A stretch of 64,000 bases of DNA from Okamejei kenojei. Its lineage: Eukaryota. Position 1 is the stretch's first letter. The number at the start of each line of letters is the position of its first letter. The notes below the pieces were generated by a model, which searched no databases, was not told the DNA's origin, and worked only from the letters and a program-made list of their open reading frames with translations. Below, piece after piece: positions 2,542-61,270 of this stretch. A program made the translations under genes and the position numbers. The stretch lies in NCBI GenBank assembly GCA_035221665.1, contig CM069141.1:40858001-40922000 (forward strand), written 5' to 3'.

Positions 2542-2562
2542 TCACTAATAACCTCTGTCACC

Positions 2563-5500
2563 TTGTTAGGGCACAAGAGCCACCCTCACTTGGCTACAAA
2601 AGGTTCAAACAGAAAAATACCCCCAGAGTCTGCAAGAGCGGGGGCGCAAGATGACTCATCGACTGACCACCTGGAAACAAACCTTGGAACGGACACGACA
2701 TTGAATCAAGTAAGTGGCAAAACTCTTGAAAAGCGAGCAGCTGGACACGTTCTTCAGACCTGTAGGTGTGGCTGGACTAAACTAACATCAACTCGTGGTC
2801 TCAAAATTCATCAGGGTCGAAAAAAATGCTTGAAAATCCCCAACCCAGGGCCCCCCATTGACCAGATTCTGTTAAGAGGACGGTCAAATCAGTCAGATGA
2901 AACTCAGCGGCAGGAAGAAATCCACAGTCCGCAGAGCATCAGCAGCCTACGGGATGTGGCAGAAGCTTCAGGCAACAGTCCAAGACACAACCAGGCACAT
3001 CGTAAAGTGGAGAACATGCAAGGACATAAGCCATTGGTGAAATGGCCAAAGTCTACCAGCAAGGAGTGGGAAATCATCAATGCAGATGTGAGCATAAGCT
3101 TAAGTGGAATCAAGGGATCAGCAGAAAAGAACTTGGAGAAGATGGGTGATCTAGTCTACAGCTATGGAAATGAGAAATTTGGTGAAAAGGAACAACTTAG
3201 CAGGAAAGATAGGCTTCCTCCCCCCAAGTCCCGTCGTCTCCAGGAAATCCAACGACTTGTTAAGGAAAGAAGAAGCCTGAGGAAGGTGTGGAAAAAAGCA
3301 ACAGCAGAAGAAAGGGAGGGCATCAATCTCCTTCAAAAGGACCTAAAACAGAGGCTCTCAAAGCTGCGCAGAGCGGAGAATTTAAGGAAACATCGCAAAA
3401 AGAAGGAAAAAGCAAGACTTCTACAAAGATCCCTTTAAGTTTGTAAAAGGCATTTTCACAAAAGAAAAAAGCCGATCCCTGAAAGCGTCAAAAAAGAAGG
3501 TTGAAGGACACATCAGAACCATCCACACTGATGAGTTAAAAGATGAACCAATTTTTGTCCCCGCTGACATCCCACCAATCTCACCCCCCAACATCAATTT
3601 AACATCAGCCCTCCCAAGCTGAGTGAGGTAAAAGAAGTAGTGAGGAAGGCAAGAATGGCCTCTGCACCAGGCCCTAATGGTGTTCCGTATTGTGTCTACA
3701 AGAATGCCCCAGACAGTCTGAAATTCCTCTGGAGGAACATGAGGGTTGCGTGGGAAAAGGAAGTTATCCCCAAAGCCTGGTGAAGAGCAGGGGGAGTCCT
3801 GATCCCAAAAGAAAACAATTCTTCCACCATCGAACAGTTTCGGCAAATAAACCTTCTTAACATAGAGGGCAAGATCTTTTTCAGTGTGGTGGCAAAAAGA
3901 CTTACAAAGTATCTGAAACAAAACCATTTCATTGATACGTCAATCCAAAAGGCTGGCATAGAAGGCTTCTCGGGATGCCTTGAACATACCAGCGTCATAT
4001 GGCAACAAATCTAGACTGCTAAGAAAGAACGAAAGAATCTGCATGTCTTGTTCCTCGATCTGGCCAATGCCTATGGATCAGTTACTCATTCGCTACTGTG
4101 AACTGCTTTTGAATTCTTTCAGGAGCCGGCAATAATAACAAATCTGATAAAAACTACTTCCAGGATCTGCAATTTTGTCTCACAACATCAGACTTTACCA
4201 CAACGTGGCAACCACTGGAAGTAGGCATCATGGCAGGGTGCACCATCTCCCCATTGACCTTTACTATGGCAATGGAGCTCATTATCAGAGCATCAAAATG
4301 GGTTGTGGGAGGAAAGCGGTTACAGTGTGGTCAGCGATTGCCAATGGTACGAGCCTATATGGACGATATAACAACACTAACAACAACTATCCCCTGCATC
4401 AAGAGACTTCTGGAAAAATGTCATCAAAACATCACATGGGCAAGGATGAAGATTAATCCCAGCAAGTGCAGAAGCATCTCCATTGTCAAAGGTCAAGTCA
4501 AGGATCAAAGATTTCATATTAATGGAATACCTGTTCCAACTGTTTCAGAAATGAAGAGTTTGGGCCGATGGTATGATGCAAAGCTCAAGGACACCAAGCA
4601 ATTTGAACAACTGAAAAAGGATATAGCACATCATGCACATAGCTCGCATCAACAAGATCTTGCTACCAGGAAAACTCAAGCTGTGGTGCTTCCAATTTGG
4701 CATACTACCAAGAATCATGTGGCCTTTAACTATGTATGAAATCCCCATCAACAAAGTGGAAAAGCTGGAAAGAATGATCAGCACACATGTGAAACAGTGG
4801 CTTGGACTTCCACGATGCTTAAGTGCTGTCGGACTGTATGGGAGTGGCAAATTGGAATTACCCATTACAGGACTTGTGGAAGAGTTCAAATGCACTAAAG
4901 CAAGGTTGGTCATGACCCTCATTGAATCAGAAGATACTGTTATTCAAACAGCGGCCCCCCATGTGGCAACGGGGAGGAAGTGGATCCAATCTGAAGCTGT
5001 TCAGAGTGCGAAGTCTACTCTTCATTTCCAGGATATGGTTGGCCAAGTCCAACACGGGAGAGCCGGGCTTGGGCTCGTCCCAAAAGCTCCTCAATGGCAC
5101 AAGGCAACATCAGTGCAGAAAAGACGGCTCGTGGTGGAGGAGGTGAGAAGACGGGAGGAGGCAGAGCGACACGCCAAGGCCGTCTCAATGGCCAAGGAAA
5201 GCCAATGGACTAACTGGGAGAGTCTGGAAAAGAGGAAACTCAGCTGACGTGAAATCTGGCAAATGGAAGGATCTCAACTAAGTTTTGTCATCAGAGCCAC
5301 TTATGATGTTCTTCCATCACCGCAGAACCTGAAGCAGTGGTTCGGAGAAGACCCCACTTGCTCCCTTTGCTAAGCACCTGGATCACTAAGGCACATTTTA
5401 ACAGGATGCACTATGAGCCTCGGCCAAGGGCGTTACACTTGGCGGCATAACCAAGTTCTCAGACAGCTGTCATCAATCCTTGAACAGAGGCGAACGATCA

Positions 5501-6029
5501 CAAATGCTTCCCCACCAACATCGGCAGGAAATGTCCACTTCACAACATTTGTCCAGCAGGCCAACCTCCAGAGCACCAGATAACATCAATGGATGCAAGC
5601 ATTCTGCAGCCTGCTCAGGATTGGGAAATTGAAGTGGACTTAGAAAAAAGCTTGTGTTTCCCCCAGACATTGTGGTTACAACACTCCAGCCAGACTTGGT
5701 CCTGTGGTCCACAACAGCCAAGTTGGCATATGTTGTGTAATTGACAGTTCCATGGGAAGATGGTGTTGAAGAAGCTTATGAGAGGAAAAAGACCAAGTAC
5801 TCTGAACTGGCAACTGAAGCTTCCCAGAATGGCTGGAAGACCAAGATTTTCCCTGTCGAAGTGGGATGCAGGGGATTTGTTGCTTCATCTATGACCAGGC
5901 TATTAAAGAAAATGGGGGTGAGGGGTCGCTGCCTGCAACAAGCAATCAAATCATTATCAAATTCTGCGGAAAAAAAGCAGCAATTGGATCTGGATCAAAA
6001 GGAGAGACAACAATTGGGCTGCAAGATGA
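2563..6029 (+). pseudogene. Disrupted RT/RLE polyprotein of the HERO-like element
   Basis: ORF fragments 2563-3438, 4230-4739, 4633-5247 and 5741-6148 are collinear parts of one protein broken by frameshifts and in-frame stops (e.g. TGA at 3781, TAG at ~4012). Confidence 0.85.
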
Positions 6030-6037
6030 ATACAGGA

Positions 6038-6167
6038 GGGTATGGAATTGAGGGGGGTGTAACTGGGACACCAGGTATCACCGTTGAGCCCTCTGGAGAT
6101 GTTGTGGGCTTATCAATGAAACATCAAAGAAGGAGGGTGCCCACCTGATGACCCCGATGACATACCT
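6038..6167 (+). ncRNA. Candidate double-pseudoknot hammerhead-core RNA with k-turn (copy 1)
   Basis: GUU 6101-6103, GAAA 6118-6121, CUGAUGA 6145-6151; six helices with the same junction geometry as the copy at 61056-61189. Confidence 0.65.
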
Positions 6168-6265
6168 ACCCTACCTTTCACCACTCCAATCCCACTGCAA
6201 ATAGCAAGAGTGCCGACTTATTACAGGGATTGAAACATCAAGTCCTATTAGCTCTACTAATCTAC

Positions 6266-6705
6266 TGTTCTGAATTATTCTTTGAGCATGGCATAAAGTC
6301 TAGTAAAGGATAGGAAGAGGGAGAGGAAGAGGGAATGGAAGAGCGAGAGAAAAAAAAATAGGGTGCTTCCTTGCTAATGTTTTCCCCTATTGCAGGTTCG
6401 AGGAAGACTGCACCACTGTGACAAACCTAAGACCACCAGCAAGACTGCACTGCTGAGAAGCCCTCGGCAGCCAGTGCTGCTACTAAGGCCAAGACTGAGA
6501 TGCCAGTGCCTCTACCTGCCCACAAGCAATGAGGGACTGCACCCACACACAGAGACAAAGACAGAGATGCCAGATAACCTAGAGACCACCATGCCGCCTC
6601 TTCAGACCCCAAAGCTGAGATGCCAGGATCAACTTGACACCACCAGTGCTTCTTCTTGAGGCAATGGTGAACTGCAGGGAGAAACCCGAGATCACTACGC
6701 CTCCT
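6266..6705 (+). repeat. Right copy of the long direct repeat
   Basis: Matches 2327-2492 and ~2504-2541, with ~240 extra bp in between. Confidence 0.85.
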
Positions 6706-7409
6706 CCTTCGAGATCAGGACTGAGCTGCAGGGACAATCCCAAGATCGCCAGCACTACCGCACATGGGCTCTGATGGTGAGAGTCAGTGCCCTCATGCAG
6801 TCTTGAACTTTCATACCAGTGTAGATAAAATATATTCATGAGTTCACCCTACTGTGAGTATATGTGTGATCACTGCTGAATTCAGCATCATCCCTGACGT
6901 CACACACCACAAAAAGCAAATCATACACAGATTATACATATACAATTCCAAAGGAAATAGCCTACAAAATAAATAAGACATTAGTGCAAAAAAATATATA
7001 TTTTTACATCCATAGTGGTGCATGAGATGGACCATAGTGTTCAGTTGTCGAGGTAGGAATAGGGTTACATAGGTTGGTCCAAGGACTTGATTTTTGCAGG
7101 AAAGTAGTTGTACTTGAACCTGTTTGCGTGGGGCTTTTGTACATCTTGCCCAATGGTAGCAGTAAAAAGAGGGCATTGTCCACCCAGTTGGTTGTGATCA
7201 TTGATAACAAATTCTACCTTCTTTTGGCAGTGCCTCATGTAGATTATTTAGATGGAGGGGAGGGCTGCTCCTATGATGTATTGGGTAGAGTCCACAATTC
7301 TCGGCAACCTCTAGACATTGGAGTTGCCATACCTGGACATGATGTAACCAGTCAGCACCTTCTACAACCGTACAACTATAAATTGGATTTGTATATGTGA
7401 TTATCTAAC

Positions 7410-47432: not shown

Positions 47433-47822
47433 TGTTTTTGCACCGTTCTGCCATTTTGAATTTGTCATTGCATTTATGGGTGTTTCTGTGATTATCATAT
47501 ATATTGTGCACTTGATGAGCTTCATGCAAACATGGAATATCATTCCATCCTGCTGTACATGACAATAACTATTCTGAATCTGAATCTGGTCACTTGATCA
47601 TAAAAATAAATAAAAGTAATCTGATTGATATGGACAGAGTTCAGAGTAGATTGAAGTCTAATGGAGTCCTCATATTCCTGGGACTGTATTCCTGAATGAA
47701 GGCAGGGCTGGGAGAAGAGCAGATAATCTTGAAACTTTTGAACAGCCCTTGGGTTCACTATTCCATTTAGGCTTGAAAGCCTGTTCCTGGCATGGGCATT
47801 GCACTCCAATTCTCAGCTTCTG

Positions 47823-48755
47823 ACATAGAAACATAGAAACATAGAAAATAGGTGCAGGAGTTGGATAGTCAAAAAATTCTATAAGATTCGTCAGCCATGA
47901 TTTACCTTTCATAAATCCATGCTGACTTTGTCCAATGATTTCACCACTTTCCAAATGTGCTGCTATCCCATCTTTAATAACTGACTCTAGCATTTTCCCC
48001 ACTACCGATGTTAGACTAACTGGTCTGTAATTCCCTGTTTTCTCTCTCCCTCCCTTTTTAAAAAGTGGGGTTACATTAGCTACCCTCCAATCCTCAGGAA
48101 CTACTCCAGAATCTAAAGAGTTTTGAAAAATTATCATTAATGCATCCACTATTTCTGGGGCTACTTCCTTAAGTACTCTGGGATGCAGCCTATCTGGCCC
48201 TGGGGATTTATCGGCCTTTAATCCATTCAATTGACCAAACACCACTTCCCGGCTAACCTGGATTTCACTCAGTTCCTCCATCTCATTTGTCCCCTGGTCC
48301 CCTGCTATTTCCGGCAGATTATTTATGTCTTCCTTAGTGAAGACAGAACCAAAGTAATTATTCAATTGGTCTGCCATGTCCTTGTTCCCCATGATCAATT
48401 CACCTGTTCTGACTGCAAGGGACCTACATTTGTTTTAACTAATCTTTTTCTCCTCACATATCTATAAAAACTTTTGCAGTCAGTTTTTATGTTCCCTGCC
48501 AGTTTTATTTCATAATCTATTTTCCCTTTCCTAATTAAGCCCTTTGTCCTCCTCTGCTGGACTCTGAATTTCTCCCAGTCCTCTGGTAGGCTGCTTTTTC
48601 TGGCTAATTTGTGTGCTTCATCTTTTGTTTTGATACTATCCCTGATTTCCCTTGTTATCCACGGATGCACTACCTTTCCTGATTTATTATTCTGAAAACT
48701 GGGATGAACAATTGTTGTAGTTCATCCATGCAGTCTTTAAATTCCTTCCATCATA
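47823..48755 (-). mobile_element. CR1 LINE fragment (RT N-terminal part joined directly to the 3' tail)
   Basis: ORFs 48395-48670 and 47670-48398 (KSPGPDRLHPRVLKE...NYRPVSLTSVVGK...LTNLIEFF), then the (TTTCTATG)n tail. Confidence 0.85.
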
Positions 48756-49129: not shown

Positions 49130-50707
49130 GTGACTTTCAACTGTCGCCGGAGATCGTCAGGCCACCGTGGTCTAGCGGGCCAGCTCTCCCGACAGGAAGT
49201 ACCCAGAGGTGGCGCAGTGACTGCAAACAAAGACGTAGGAAGCGCGGAAGCTATCGAGCTAGGCTGAAATCAAACCAGCACCAGCCAGCTCTGCCCAGCA
49301 TTTTCCTCGCGAATGTCCGGTCCCTGGTGAGTAAAATCGACGAACTGTGACTGCGGATCACCACACACAACCGGATCGCCAACTGCAACGCCATGGTCTT
49401 CACCGAAACATGGCTCACCGACAACATTCCGGACAACGCCATCGAGCTGGAGGGGCGCACTGTCTTCAGGGCCGATAGAACAGCGGAGGGCTCCGGTAAG
49501 ACCAAGGGCGGCGGACTGTGCATTTATGTGAATAACTCATGGTGTACAGACGTTGTCAGGATTGGTAGTCACTGCTCTGCTGAAATGGAATACCTGATGA
49601 TAAAGTGCAGGCCCTTCTATCTGCCCAGGGAATTTACATCGATTGTTATCACTGCAGTCTATGTACCCCCAGACGCTAATGCCAGGCTAGCAATGGAAGA
49701 GCTGCAAGCTGTTATCAGCAAACAACTAACTGCACACCCAGAGGGGGCTTTTATTGTTGCTGGTGATTTTAACCACTCCAACCTTAAAACTGTACTCTCC
49801 AGATTCCACCAACATGTCTCCACCAACCAGAGGAAACAATATTTTGGACCTAGTATATACCAATATTACTGAAGCATACAAAGCCCTCCCCTCCCCCACC
49901 TGGGCAGTCTGACCACCTCTCTCTGTTCCTGCTCCCCAAATACACACCTCTGATCAGACGTGTGAAACCTACCACGAGGACTGTGAAGGTCTGGCCTGAG
50001 GGGGCTGTGTCTGTTTTACAGGAACCGTTTCAGCAAACAGACTGGAGTCTGTTTGCCACTCAGGCCACCTTCAACTCCCAAGTGGACATCAGCTCATACA
50101 CCTCAACCGTTCTGGACTATATAAAATACTGCACGGACAATGTCACTACCCACAAAGAGATAAAAACCTTCCCTAACCAGAAGCTGTGGATGAGCAGGGA
50201 GGTCAGACTCCTGCGGAAGGCTCGCGACGCCGCTTTTAAATCTGGCGACGCTGAGGGATACAGCTCATCCAGGGCCAATCTGAAAAAGGGAATTAGGAAT
50301 GCTAAACACAATCACAAACGGTGGATTGAGGAGCATTTCCGAAACAACTCTGACACCAGGAGCATGTGGCAAGGAATCAAATCCATTGCCGATTACCATA
50401 AAGTCAACACCCCCTCCCAGACAACGCCTCCCTTCCTGACGAGCTAAACCATTTCTATGCTCGCTTTGACCGGGACAACAAAACTCCAGCCATCAAAGTT
50501 GCTCCATCCCCGAATGAACAACCCCTCTGTCTCTCCACCTCTGCTGTACAAGATGCACTGAACAAGGTGAATGAGCACAAAGCTGCCAGCCCCGATGGCA
50601 TCCCCGGGCGGGTGCTCAGGGCATGTGCTGGACAACTATCCCTGGTCCTCACTGACATTTTCAATCTGTCACTGGCCCAGGGTGTCGTCCCCACTTGCCT
50701 CAAGACC
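49130..50707 (+). mobile_element. Rex1/Babar-type LINE 5' part (APE endonuclease to RT start), 3'-truncated
   Basis: FTETWL, GGGLCIYVN, IVAGDFNH, KAASPDGIPGRVLRACA..DIFNLSL..VPTCLK. Confidence 0.8.
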
Positions 50708-51752
50708 TGGTCTTGGCAGAAGAGATGGTCAAATGAAAGGAGGATCTACTGGAAAGTGAGGGGTCAAGATGCAGTTCTAGAACATCGAAGGTGATGAACT
50801 ACGATTTGGGAAGAACGATTGCTCGAAGTGAATTATCAGTTGGATCAATTCCACAATCGAGGTCCACCGGATTTCATGGCTTTGAAAACCCATTGGAACA
50901 GAGTAGGATGGGTAAAACTTCATCTCAGCAAATGGGTGCTAAATCAAAACAAACCACTATTGGAGCATCTGTCGATGCTCGAGACAAACCAATAGCGGAA
51001 CACGCTTATCCGAGGTCTGGTGCACAGGCTCGAGCAGCCAGTTTGAGTCACAAAGGCCTGTTTATCAACAGGTGGAGCCATGCCAACGTTATCAGGATGG
51101 ATTATTGGCATTGGTGAAAAAGCAAACCGAATTCAATCAGATCATAACTCGACAAAATACCTCTCTCACTCTAACACCAGCAGAAATTCCTACTTATGAT
51201 GGAGATCCTTTGCGGTATGAAGCTTTTGTAAGGGCATTAGAAGAAGTATTAGAAATGAAAGTTACGGATGAAAAGGAGCGCTTACGATTTCTGGTGAAGT
51301 ACACAAGTGGAAGTATTCAGATACTTGGAGAAAGTTGTCAAAATAAGCCAGGCAGCCATGGCTATAAAAAGGCGAGAAGATTACTTAAAGAACGTTTTGG
51401 TAATGAACAGACGATTGCTAATGCATACATGGAGAAGGCCCATGCTTGGAAAGAAATGAAGCCGGAAGATGGGGAGGCATTGAGTGATTATGCAATATTT
51501 CTGAGAGGTTGTTGCAGCTCCATGAAAAATCTTGGCCACATAAAGGAAATGAATCTTGCTAGTAATACTAGAATCATCATTAGCAAGTTGCCCAGAAGAC
51601 TGAGAGAAAAGTGGAGATATGAAGCAGGTGGAATAATGGATAAGAGGAACCAAGTAGCCTGGCTACCAGACCTGGTGGATTTCTTCGACAGGGAAGTGTG
51701 GTACATGTTAGAGCCACACTATGGGACTATTGAAGATTACAAACCGATTGAT

Positions 51753-52197
51753 AAGACTAGGCTTGTATTCATTGGAGTTTAGAAGGAGCAGGGGGGATCT
51801 AATAGAAACATATAAAATTATAAAAGGACTTGGCAAGCTAGATGCAGGAAAAATGTTCCCAATGTTGGGCGAGTCCAGAACCAGGGGCCACAGTCTAAGA
51901 ATAAAGGGGAAGCCATTTAAGACTGAGGTGAGAAAAAAACTTTTTCACCCAGAGAGTTGTAAATTTGTGGAATTCCCTGGAAGAGGGCAGTGGAGGCCAA
52001 ATCACTGGATGGATTTAAGAGAGAGTTTGATACAGCTCTAGGGGCTAGTGGAATCAAGGGAAATGGGGAGAAGTAAGGCATGGGTTATTGATTGGGGACG
52101 ATCAGCCATGATCACAATGCATGGTGGTGCTGACTCGATGGGCTGAATGGCCTCCTCCTGCACCTATTTTCTGCGTTTCTATGTTTCTATCTTTCTA
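51753..52197 (+). mobile_element. CR1 3' fragment inserted in BEL gag
   Basis: LGLYSLEFRR.RGDLIETYKI...TRGHSLRIKG; (TTTCTATG)n tail. Confidence 0.85.
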
Positions 52198-54222: not shown

Positions 54223-54297
54223 TCCTCGTTAGTATAGTGATTAGTATCACCGCCTGTCACGCGGGAGATGGGGGTTCAATTCGCCAACGAGGATCCA
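54223..54297 (+). tRNA. tRNA-Asp(GTC)-derived copy (probably a pseudogene) followed by CCA, inside the BEL element
   Basis: TCCTCGTTAGTATAGTGATTAGTATCACCGCCTGTCACGCGGGAGATGGGGGTTCAATTCGCCAACGAGGAT-CCA aligns without gaps to vertebrate tRNA-Asp-GTC with about 10 substitutions; anticodon GTC is retained. Confidence 0.8.
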
Positions 54298-59748: not shown

Positions 59749-61270
59749 TACCATCTATGAGGTCACTTTATCCCATGCCAACCAGCTGGAGAGACTGGTG
59801 AACTCACAAGTGAGGAAGTGGCTTGGGCTACCGAGATGCCTCAGCAGCATATGGGAATGGAGCCCTCTCACTGCCAGTCTCAAGCCTGGTGGAGGAGTAC
59901 AAATGTGCCAAAGTGAGGCTGGACATGACACTAACAGAATCCCGGAACCCAATAATAAGAGGTGTTGCTCCAACCCTAGCAACACATAGGAAATGGATTC
60001 TAGCAGCAGTGGTACTGGACGCAAAATCCGCCCTCCAACACCGGGACATAGTGGGCCATGTCCAACAAGGCCGAGGGGGCTTTGGCCTGGGAGCAATGAA
60101 ACCTACCTGGCAAAAGGCTACTCCAACTGAACGTCGGCACCTGGTGGTGGAGGAGGTGCGCCACCAGGAAGAAGCAGCCAGGTGTGCCAAAGCCATATCC
60201 CAAGCCAAACAAGGCCGCTGGATGAAGTGGGATGGCGTTGAGAGGAGGAAGATCACATGGAGAGAGCTGTGGACCATGGAGTCAAATAAGTTGAGATTCA
60301 TTATCAGAGATACATATGACGTCCTTCCCTCTCCCACAAACCTAAATCTTTGGCTGGGAGAGGATCCAGCCTGCCCCCTGTGTGCAGTTCCAGCAAACCT
60401 CAAGCACATCCTGGTCGGTTGTAAGACCAGCCTAACACAAGACAGATACACCTGGTGACACAACCAGGTGCTGAGGTGTTTGGCAGCTGAACTCGAGTGC
60501 TAGAGAGTTACCACCAACGCCATGCCTAGCAATGCCCAGATAACATTCCCGCAAATACCATCCTTCATCCGGGAAGGAGAGAAACGGAGGACTGACCCCT
60601 CGCCTCTCAACTCATGCCCACTGAACGCAGCCAGGGACTGGGAAATGCATGTTGACCAAGGCCAGAGGCTTTCGTTCCCAGTTGAAATCGCAGTTAACAA
60701 CCTGCGACCAGACCTCGTTCTCTGGTCTAACTCCTGTCGCCGTGTTTTCATCATTGAGCTGACGGTCCCATGGAAGGAGGCTGTGGACAAGGCTTATGAA
60801 AGGAAAAGCTTTCATATTCAAACCTTGCAGCAGAGGCAAAGGAGAGAGGTTGGAGGGTAAGGTTGTGTCCAGCGGAGGTGGGGTGCAGGGGCTTTGTTGC
60901 CAGTTCCACCGCAAGGCTCCCGAGGGAAGTAGGAGTCAAAGGGCAGGCACAAAGGAGGGCAATAAACAAACTTGCCAATGCCGCCGAACAGAGCAGTCAC
61001 TGGCTGTGGCTGAAGAGGAAAGATGCTGTCTGGGCTGCCACGTGACCATCTAGAAGCTAGCAATAAGACACACACCCAGGTCTGATCAACCTGTGGTGGG
61101 CCTGCCTCGACTGAGGGTGTCTTGTGATAAAAGGCCGAAACACCCAGTGACGTTGAGGTACACAACTGAAGATGTGTCTGGTTGTTAGCAAAATTCACCT
61201 AGTGGTCATACCCAAGAATGTCAATTGTAGTGAAATCTTTGGGATTGTAACATCCAGTCCTAATAATCAA
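59749..61270 (+). mobile_element. 5'-truncated HERO-like non-LTR retrotransposon (second, divergent subfamily)
   Basis: WLGLPRCLSS, GHVQQGRGGFG, DTYDVLPSPTNL..CPLCAVPANLKHILVGC, RPDLVLWS..IELTVPW, EVGCRGF; ORF ends at 61045; inserted into a PLE-derived repeat with TCAAT on both sides. Confidence 0.88.
61056..61189 (+). ncRNA. Candidate double-pseudoknot hammerhead-core RNA with k-turn (copy 2, best preserved)
   Basis: GUC 61119-61121, CGAAA 61136-61140, CUGAAGA 61166-61172; six helices that covary with copy 1. Confidence 0.7.

Follow-up and report, generated by a model that had tools for sequence, protein, structure and literature searches.

The 3' UTR of HERO-clade retrotransposons carries a real and conserved variant of the hammerhead fold. 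In the window, by which we mean the whole 64,000-nucleotide stretch of Okamejei kenojei DNA analysed here, the fold begins 9 nt past the stop codon of a HERO copy, in its 3' UTR, and a second copy lies in another HERO subfamily (Table 1). From its letters and helices, we predict with considerable confidence that the fold self-cleaves. A broader proposal, to which we give slightly less than even weight, is that HERO LINEs across animals and other eukaryotes replicate through a ribozyme-made 3.85-kb coding circle and rolling target-primed synthesis, using a non-circularly permuted hammerhead opened at A9–G10.1.

The host element has the features expected of HERO: a single ORF with a reverse transcriptase (RT), a CCHC knuckle and a restriction-like endonuclease (RLE), in a family unit of about 3.8–3.9 kb. 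Counted by eye, 46 of 73 RT residues are identical to HERO-1_BF (PMC7650587 supplement), with far fewer shared with R4-5_BX. Relatives occur in fish, lancelet and mollusc. Ordinary copies have flanks unrelated to each other, indicating no target specificity, and the parts available of the PMC7650587 supplement and PMC9004415 likewise describe the clade (HERO-1_BF and HEROTn) as having a single ORF with RT, CCHC and restriction-like endonuclease and no target specificity. The 3' end lacks poly(A) and falls at 6257-6259 in 68 of 90 alignments; the terminal motif, whose imperfect hairpin can be seen by eye in three HERO subfamilies, is probably the start point of reverse transcription. The window copy is missing the first ~145 nt of its 5' UTR, and for this reason lacks the head-to-tail junction described below. 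It is flanked by a 166-bp direct repeat (97.6%; 2327-2492 and 6266-6429) and by a second one of 40 bp (2504-2543 and 6667-6706), unlike other HERO copies, which show no target-site duplication.

Table 1. Coordinates in the window of the HERO copy, its 3' UTR fold and the second copy of the fold.
Feature	Coordinates	Strand	Details
HERO-clade RLE non-LTR retrotransposon copy, ORF broken	2553..6258 (about)	+	
Reverse transcriptase region	3658..4736	+	RVT_1 match
Restriction-like endonuclease region and stop codon	5672..6029	+	stop codon 6027-6029
PA, 5' strand	6038..6055	+	6038-6044 and 6052-6055; partners 6161-6167 and 6152-6155
PB hairpin	6056..6082	+	0-nt junctions to PA and stem II
Stem II and outer (I–II interaction) helix, 5' strands	6083..6094	+	stem II 6083-6087 (G10.1 = 6083); outer 6088-6094
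Block S	6098..6109	+	stem III strand 6098-6102; U16.1 = 6102; H17 = 6103; stem I 5' strand 6104-6109
Predicted cut	6103/6104 bond	+	placed by analogy
Block G	6113..6125	+	stem II 3' strand 6113-6117; GAAA 6118-6121; stem III partner strand 6121-6125
Outer helix and stem I, 3' strands, and CUGAUGA	6132..6151	+	outer 6132-6138; stem I 6139-6144; CUGAUGA 6145-6151
PA, 3' strand	6152..6167	+	directly after A9
Conserved 3'-terminal motif	6226..6258	+	imperfect hairpin; sharp 3' end 6257-6259
Copy 2 of the fold, second HERO subfamily	about 61059..61186	+	PB 61073-61098; G10.1 61099; C17 61121; GAAA 61137-61140; CUGAAGA 61166-61172

All six helices and the core words lie where the original prediction had placed them, and each position that it listed pairs. 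Copy 2 has the same junctions as the 6038-6167 copy, yet the two motifs have diverged to 45% identity. The nested minimum-energy fold of the window copy, a calculation in which pseudoknots are not scorable, forms PA, PB and the outer helix, and the rest meets competing pairing.

The core letters C3 U4 G5 A6 N7 G8 A9 and G12 A13 A14 and the A15.1–U16.1 pair are present in the window copy and in 25 of 38 loci with sufficient 3' sequence; these letters were demanded by our search descriptor, and the informative test is their enrichment over 5.09 Mb of shuffled sequence, which gave no match. Stems I, II and III surround the core and show covariation. N7 takes all four bases across the motifs. Position H17, which was left free in the search, is A in 11, C in 8 and U in 6 of the 25 motifs and never G, consistent with the NUH rule; by contrast, G occupied this position in 710 of 2,390 best fits of shuffled sequences (30%). 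By our own arithmetic, the chance of such an absence is about 0.02 to 0.002, given 11 to 18 independent clusters. The 10.1–11.1 pair is G–C in 21 of the 25 motifs, G–U in two (including the window copy) and mismatched in two. We placed the predicted cut after H17, at 6103, because this is where it would fall by analogy with hammerheads. The Rfam hammerhead models stayed below the gathering score throughout the window and produced nothing at E<=10 in 5950-6300 or at E<=1 in 17 loci. Rfam contains no model of the HERO fold.

In known hammerheads, A9 is joined to position 10.1 directly or through one or two nucleotides, but this link is broken in 22 of the 25 HERO motifs. Counting pairs between the strand that follows CUGAnGA and the one that precedes GAAA gives none in 22 motifs, one in two motifs and two in one, and these counts rule out a stem II formed 3' of CUGAnGA in the standard or the canonical type-SGC manner. 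The strand 3' of CUGAnGA instead belongs to PA, which lies directly against PB, and PB in turn directly adjoins G10.1. We infer that the A9–G10.1 link is replaced by a four-helix junction, with stem II stacked on the A9–G12 side of the core and PA stacked on PB. A second GAAAC at 6232, considered as a partner for CUGAUGA, offered no stem II when inspected by eye. In the lineage of L104 and L111, a G right after CUGAUGA could supply 10.1 and shift the break by one pair (by eye); the L104, L111 and L112 lineage has a long branched PB, and there the same G could restore a direct A9–G10.1 link. A UGAUCA-like word is conserved in the PB loop of L092, L096, L098, L099, L100, L108, L115, L121 and L127 and at window positions 61080-61087, and is absent from the lineage of the 6038-6167 copy.

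The original prediction held, from two copies, that the fold was under selection, and this is borne out beyond those copies by the 25 exact cores, by shuffle controls and by covariation. A strict descriptor, derived from the window's two copies and thus finding those two by construction, had no further match in the window, matched 13 of 72 metagenome loci and gave no hit in 5,085,280 shuffled bases, so the six-helix match stands up to comparison with shuffled controls. The 72 loci were gathered by protein similarity; 46 reach the C terminus, eight of these with <190 nt of 3' sequence. Among the 38 loci with >=190 nt, 25 have the exact core, 4 a degenerate core and 9 no fit, and a covariance model weakly recovers two of these nine (E about 0.05). 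Exact-core carriers are spread over most deep branches of the HERO protein tree, and the HERO proteins of motif carriers are 34–75% identical.

As the helix registers had been chosen to pair, we used a stricter control in which GAAA and CUGAnGA were fixed and the remainder was shuffled. For the window copy, the four core helices outscored every one of 100 shuffles, and 1 in 100 flank shuffles attained its PA plus PB with 0-nt junctions. In all 24 motifs compared (one truncated motif was excluded), the four core helices scored above all ~100 shuffles. PA plus PB with 0-nt junctions was present in 20 of the 24, of which 16 exceeded all 100 flank shuffles, and the strict 0-nt junctions were absent from the other four. 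Sixteen motifs aligned by MAFFT without guidance showed two-sided changes at 26 of 34 pairs, with a covariation score of 0.447, compared with 0.203 for shuffled and at most 0.234 for slid alignments; a model-fitted alignment of 26 matches scored 0.426 against 0.162. These shuffle and covariation controls leave relatedness in, the motifs forming 18 clusters at 80% identity and 11 at 70%. All six helices are mutually compatible and covary together.

One reading of the window copy did not hold. T6103 and T6117 had been taken as CpG decay from GUC and CGAAA, but T is the norm of the subfamily at both positions (75 of 79 and 78 of 80 copies). The 30 nearest copies likewise have T in 29 and 30 cases, respectively. 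The larger counts come from 81 subfamily copies, sampled by genome position among the first 90 of the 424 matches that a 3' anchor gave. The base after 6103 is A in 1 of 79 copies and the base after 6117 is A in 4 of 80, whereas the true CpG sites used for comparison (6069/70, 6082/83 and 6122/23) had decayed in 11–24 copies. Because the sister subfamily (9 sampled copies) has GUC and CGAAA, the C-to-T changes may have been fixed once in the master lineage. However, GUU (6 of 25 motifs) and G10.1–U11.1 (2 of 25) are found in further lineages too and seem to be variants that the fold tolerates. The window copy's own CpG decays are at 6070, 6123 and 6162, and two of them turn a family G–U pair into U–A.

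Genome-wide, in 39 of 41 matches to the HERO 5' start, the 3' end of the element itself stood directly upstream, joined at exactly the same point each time; of the two exceptions, one had a changed junction and the other had three shared letters. The search pattern for the 5' start left out sites with a G 19 nt upstream. Read from the other side, the recurring 3' flank of HERO copies was identified as the element's own 5' UTR. We fetched 41 loci (40 from the 5'-start search plus one variant), which correspond to 38 events after three duplicate pairs. The upstream repeat ranges from 3 nt to about 1.7 kb, with starts scattered from 4540 to 6256, and 9 of the 38 repeats end within 60 nt of the junction. 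Relative to the predicted cut at 6103/6104, 24 events cross it, 11 do not, 3 are unclear and none starts at 6104; the nearest starts are 6081, 6109, 6115 and 6119. In three unrelated loci (L331, L334 and L339), the upstream repeats begin at 6200 or 6201, which is possibly an RT stop site in a second round. L349 and L356 have two junctions each, and two units of L349 have a common deletion that is missing from its first repeat, a pattern that one circle leaves unexplained.

The two repeats of a locus also resemble each other. Across 26 loci with both repeats, 31 of 141 upstream non-CpG variants recurred downstream, compared with 278 of 3,964 between loci, and none of 5,000 permutations gave within-locus sharing as high. 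About ten of the shared variants occur in at most one sampled copy, and the upstream and downstream repeat sets have no fixed differences. The exact junction and the shared variants together indicate that the HERO RT does not stop at the element start. Judging from these sequences, both repeats of a locus were most likely copied from one molecule, and gene conversion between neighbouring repeats could account for part of the shared variants. This is good indirect evidence that, when HERO copies are made, the template is read beyond its start, a conclusion that would hold apart from any catalysis. Three distant lineages (L100, L115 and L127) among 28 loci examined show the same kind of join, the motif being directly followed by the element's own 5' UTR and N-terminal ORF (tblastn E values of 7e-11, 0.002 and 1e-20, respectively). 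In subfamily 2, no recurrent downstream junction appeared among the 25 ends listed. The HERO 5' UTR starts with a short repeated motif common to the distant lineages L100, L106, L115, L127 and L187, possibly a protein-binding or translation signal.

We searched for scars at the predicted cut. There was no peak of 5'-truncated copies at 6104, either genome-wide (0 copies) or among 90 alignments, and no indel hot spot: the genome has 10 deletion alleles in 6098-6106, compared with 424 matches to a 22-mer close by. Six of the 10 were the same 3-nt loss in a tandem triplet, and the rate is not above that elsewhere. The lack of a truncation or deletion excess at 6104 suggests that the copied template is continuous; a cut at 6103/6104 would leave the ORF and the 3' end on separate pieces, but copies continue across this bond. 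Among runs of assembled contigs whose type was guessed, contigs of X2 and X5 bridge 6103. Summed contig depth was lower over 6099-6161 in three RNA-guessed runs but not in a DNA-like run, with depths that cannot be ranked. An X1 contig leaving at 6103, considered as a cleavage trace, matches the genomic insertion L254 and is uninformative.

Three loci (L254, L256 and L257) carry unrelated LINE fragments (480, 1,026 and 287 bp) inserted tail first exactly at 6103/6104, flanked by duplications of 5, 3 and 3 bp, and both CR1-type tail insertions within 6095-6125 use this bond. The background is 8 interruptions listed in 78,349 element bases, or about 5-6 independent insertions. About 8 of 100 listed tail junctions of the inserting family follow GTT (by eye), and this DNA preference may explain part of the insertions. 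No foreign insertion was found at the cut site of subfamily 2, and without replication there we do not count the insertions as a sign of a nick.

One route that could join the fold to the junction, and to which we give about even weight on the sequence evidence, is that the hammerhead-like fold cleaves after H17 and cuts a unit RNA from a 1.x-unit copy, the unit then being circularised and reverse-transcribed past one unit. In this scheme, the four-helix junction, with II on the core and PA on PB, would hold A9 and G10.1 in place of the backbone link. A read-through transcript of a copy with the whole motif in its upstream repeat would be cut twice, at predicted sites one unit apart, giving a permuted RNA in which 6104..6258 is joined to start..6103. 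Helices PA, II, outer and III would hold the two RNA ends together, an arrangement suited to ligation, and the ribozyme or an RtcB-type ligase would join them; in the sequence, stem I lies wholly in one cleavage piece, and PA, II, outer and III bridge the two pieces. RT would begin internally at 6258, with most insertions 5'-truncated, and an RT finishing one round would pass the junction and thereby rebuild the competent 1.x-unit form. On a circle, the junction would be no more than the point where the RT starts, which would fit the sharp, poly(A)-free 3' ends, synthesis that does not halt at the element start, a cut site that bears no scar and the regrowth of long repeats. Against this model, the bases after ordinary 3' ends (n=54; A 21, T 13, G 12, C 8) show no excess of the circle's next letter. 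As far as the available text of the two papers goes, a circular-template route was proposed earlier for Penelope-like elements (PMC4209133), and a ribozyme-circle route has been demonstrated for retrozymes (PMC7229834).

The main rival, which we consider unlikely although it fits the DNA data nearly as well as the circle, keeps an active ribozyme but has a linear RNA template running from the 5' start to 6258. RT would jump from end to end on the same molecule, and the ribozyme would act as a clamped reversible nick that tunes translation or stability. According to the accessible part of PMC8857657, the R2 RT does jump between separate templates, and a jump on the same molecule would also yield shared variants and variable upstream repeats; the same source, in that part, has jumping depend on non-templated addition, with scars possible but not obligatory, whereas the HERO junctions are exact. 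The linear template would in addition demand a jump efficiency close to 100% (39 of 41 starts) and a pair of exactly defined, poly(A)-free RNA ends at sites that carry no ribozyme, and the four-helix clamp would then have no evident function.

Proteins of RLE LINEs bind structured 3' UTRs, as is established for R2, which lends some weight to a further explanation: the fold could be non-catalytic, a conserved structure on which the HERO protein docks and in which hammerhead letters are retained or imitated. The broken A9–G10.1 link in 22 of 25 motifs and the lack of any scar left by insertions at the predicted cut would also fit a docking structure. Nevertheless, docking gives no evident reason for an NUH triplet from which G is excluded (0 of 25), a free N7, and A15.1–U16.1 and G10.1–C11.1 pairs retained across proteins 34–75% identical, nor for six helices that are all compatible and covary together. 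The many truncated copies and the separate terminal motif would place docking at the 3' end, and we regard a purely structural role as improbable.

A linear scheme like that of HeT-A, in which a promoter in the upstream repeat gives a terminally redundant RNA and the repeats are inherited separately from a master, would account for the exact junction, and A/B-box-like letters precede the motif in some lineages (by eye). However, the repeat starts are scattered from 4540 to 6256 with no pile-up at a start site, no fixed differences separate upstream from downstream repeats, private variants are common to the repeats within loci, and over generations the repeats could only shrink, making this scheme very unlikely. 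The A-box-like and B-box-like letters lie between the stop codon and the motif in L109, L115, L116, L118, L120, L123, L125, L127, L130 and L134; neither ARAGORN nor Rfam found a tRNA in those loci, and we rejected the idea of tRNA-like pieces before the motif. That the upstream repeat arrived later, by insertion targeted to the 5' start of a resident copy, or arose by tandem duplication at the DNA level, is barely credible, since the flanks of ordinary copies are unrelated, the repeat is present at 39 of 41 starts, private variants are common to both repeats and independent duplications would not give one exact junction.

Returning to the self-cleaving fold and its putative circle, the closest known relatives are the type-SGC hammerheads (HRIMA-1 and variants; PMC10085705). 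In the portion of that study available, these share with the HERO fold the S–G–C order, a short I–II linker, a helix joining the far sides of I and II and all core letters. They differ in block C: in type SGC, the stem II strand directly follows CUGAnGA, whereas in HERO it lies on the 5' side and A9 runs into PA. The HERO fold thus has the order, the linker and the I–II helix of type SGC without an intact block C, and by analogy it would work like type SGC, although we do not class it as a member. Block C was assumed to be unbreakable in the available text of the type-SGC study (Eckert, Friedrich, Weinberg and Weinberg 2023; PMC10085705), which also puts inserted nucleotides at A9–G10.1 in known hammerhead alignments at one or two at most; Penelope hammerheads are known to have a single additional nucleotide at 9/10.1 in some cases (PMC4209133, in the part available). 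As described in the accessible sections of PMC10085705, type SGC comes from metatranscriptomes and not from genomes of known organisms, whereas the HERO motif belongs to eukaryotic LINEs; in our literature search, type SGC appeared only in that paper.

Other mobile elements share parts of this arrangement, as far as the cited papers were available. In Penelope-like elements (Cervera and de la Pena 2014; PMC4209133), the endonuclease is of GIY-YIG type and the hammerheads are minimal type I ones, whereas HERO is an RLE LINE with a non-circularly permuted motif containing a four-helix junction. Retrozymes (Cervera and de la Pena 2020; PMC7229834) use two hammerheads to release a monomer that is circularised mostly by an RtcB-type ligase in vitro, but they are short, non-coding and non-autonomous, whereas the HERO unit is a 3.85-kb autonomous element. 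With these two routes, HERO has in common a partial head-to-tail upstream repeat with a ribozyme motif, but its ORF is of RLE type and it is neither GIY-YIG nor non-coding. The HDV-like ribozymes of R2, L1Tc, RTE and Baggins (PMC6765202) are self-cleaving RNAs that free a non-LTR element from its co-transcript; they sit at and define the 5' end, whereas the HERO motif follows the stop codon and its cut site coincides with no copy boundary.

In the literature searched, outside which lay most subscription journals and Repbase, we found no report of a hammerhead, another ribozyme or a head-to-tail repeat in HERO, and none of a permuted hammerhead with a four-way junction in a non-LTR element. We also found no tested precedent for a backbone break at A9–G10.1 in the literature consulted. 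Hammerhead variants with extra helices are mentioned in the available part of PMC13725137, and one with its extra helix at the A9–G10.1 position may already be known.

If the fold cleaves, it would represent a hammerhead permutation outside the six allowed by the block model, and a non-circular permutation in eukaryotic genomes, within an old and widespread LINE clade. Its core would then tolerate a helical junction at A9–G10.1, which would be useful for designing ribozymes with clamped products. The HERO junction data make the circular-template proposal for Penelope-like elements directly testable in an autonomous RLE LINE, and RLE LINEs are the class now being engineered for gene insertion.

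Elsewhere in the window, a tRNA-like Rfam match at 54223-54294 (34.9 bits, with mismatched stems) is probably a tRNA-Asp-like pseudogene or the head of a SINE. Fragments of other retroelements, with RT, APE endonuclease and DUF1759 matches, lie at 47673-48434, 49351-49869 and 50943-51779.
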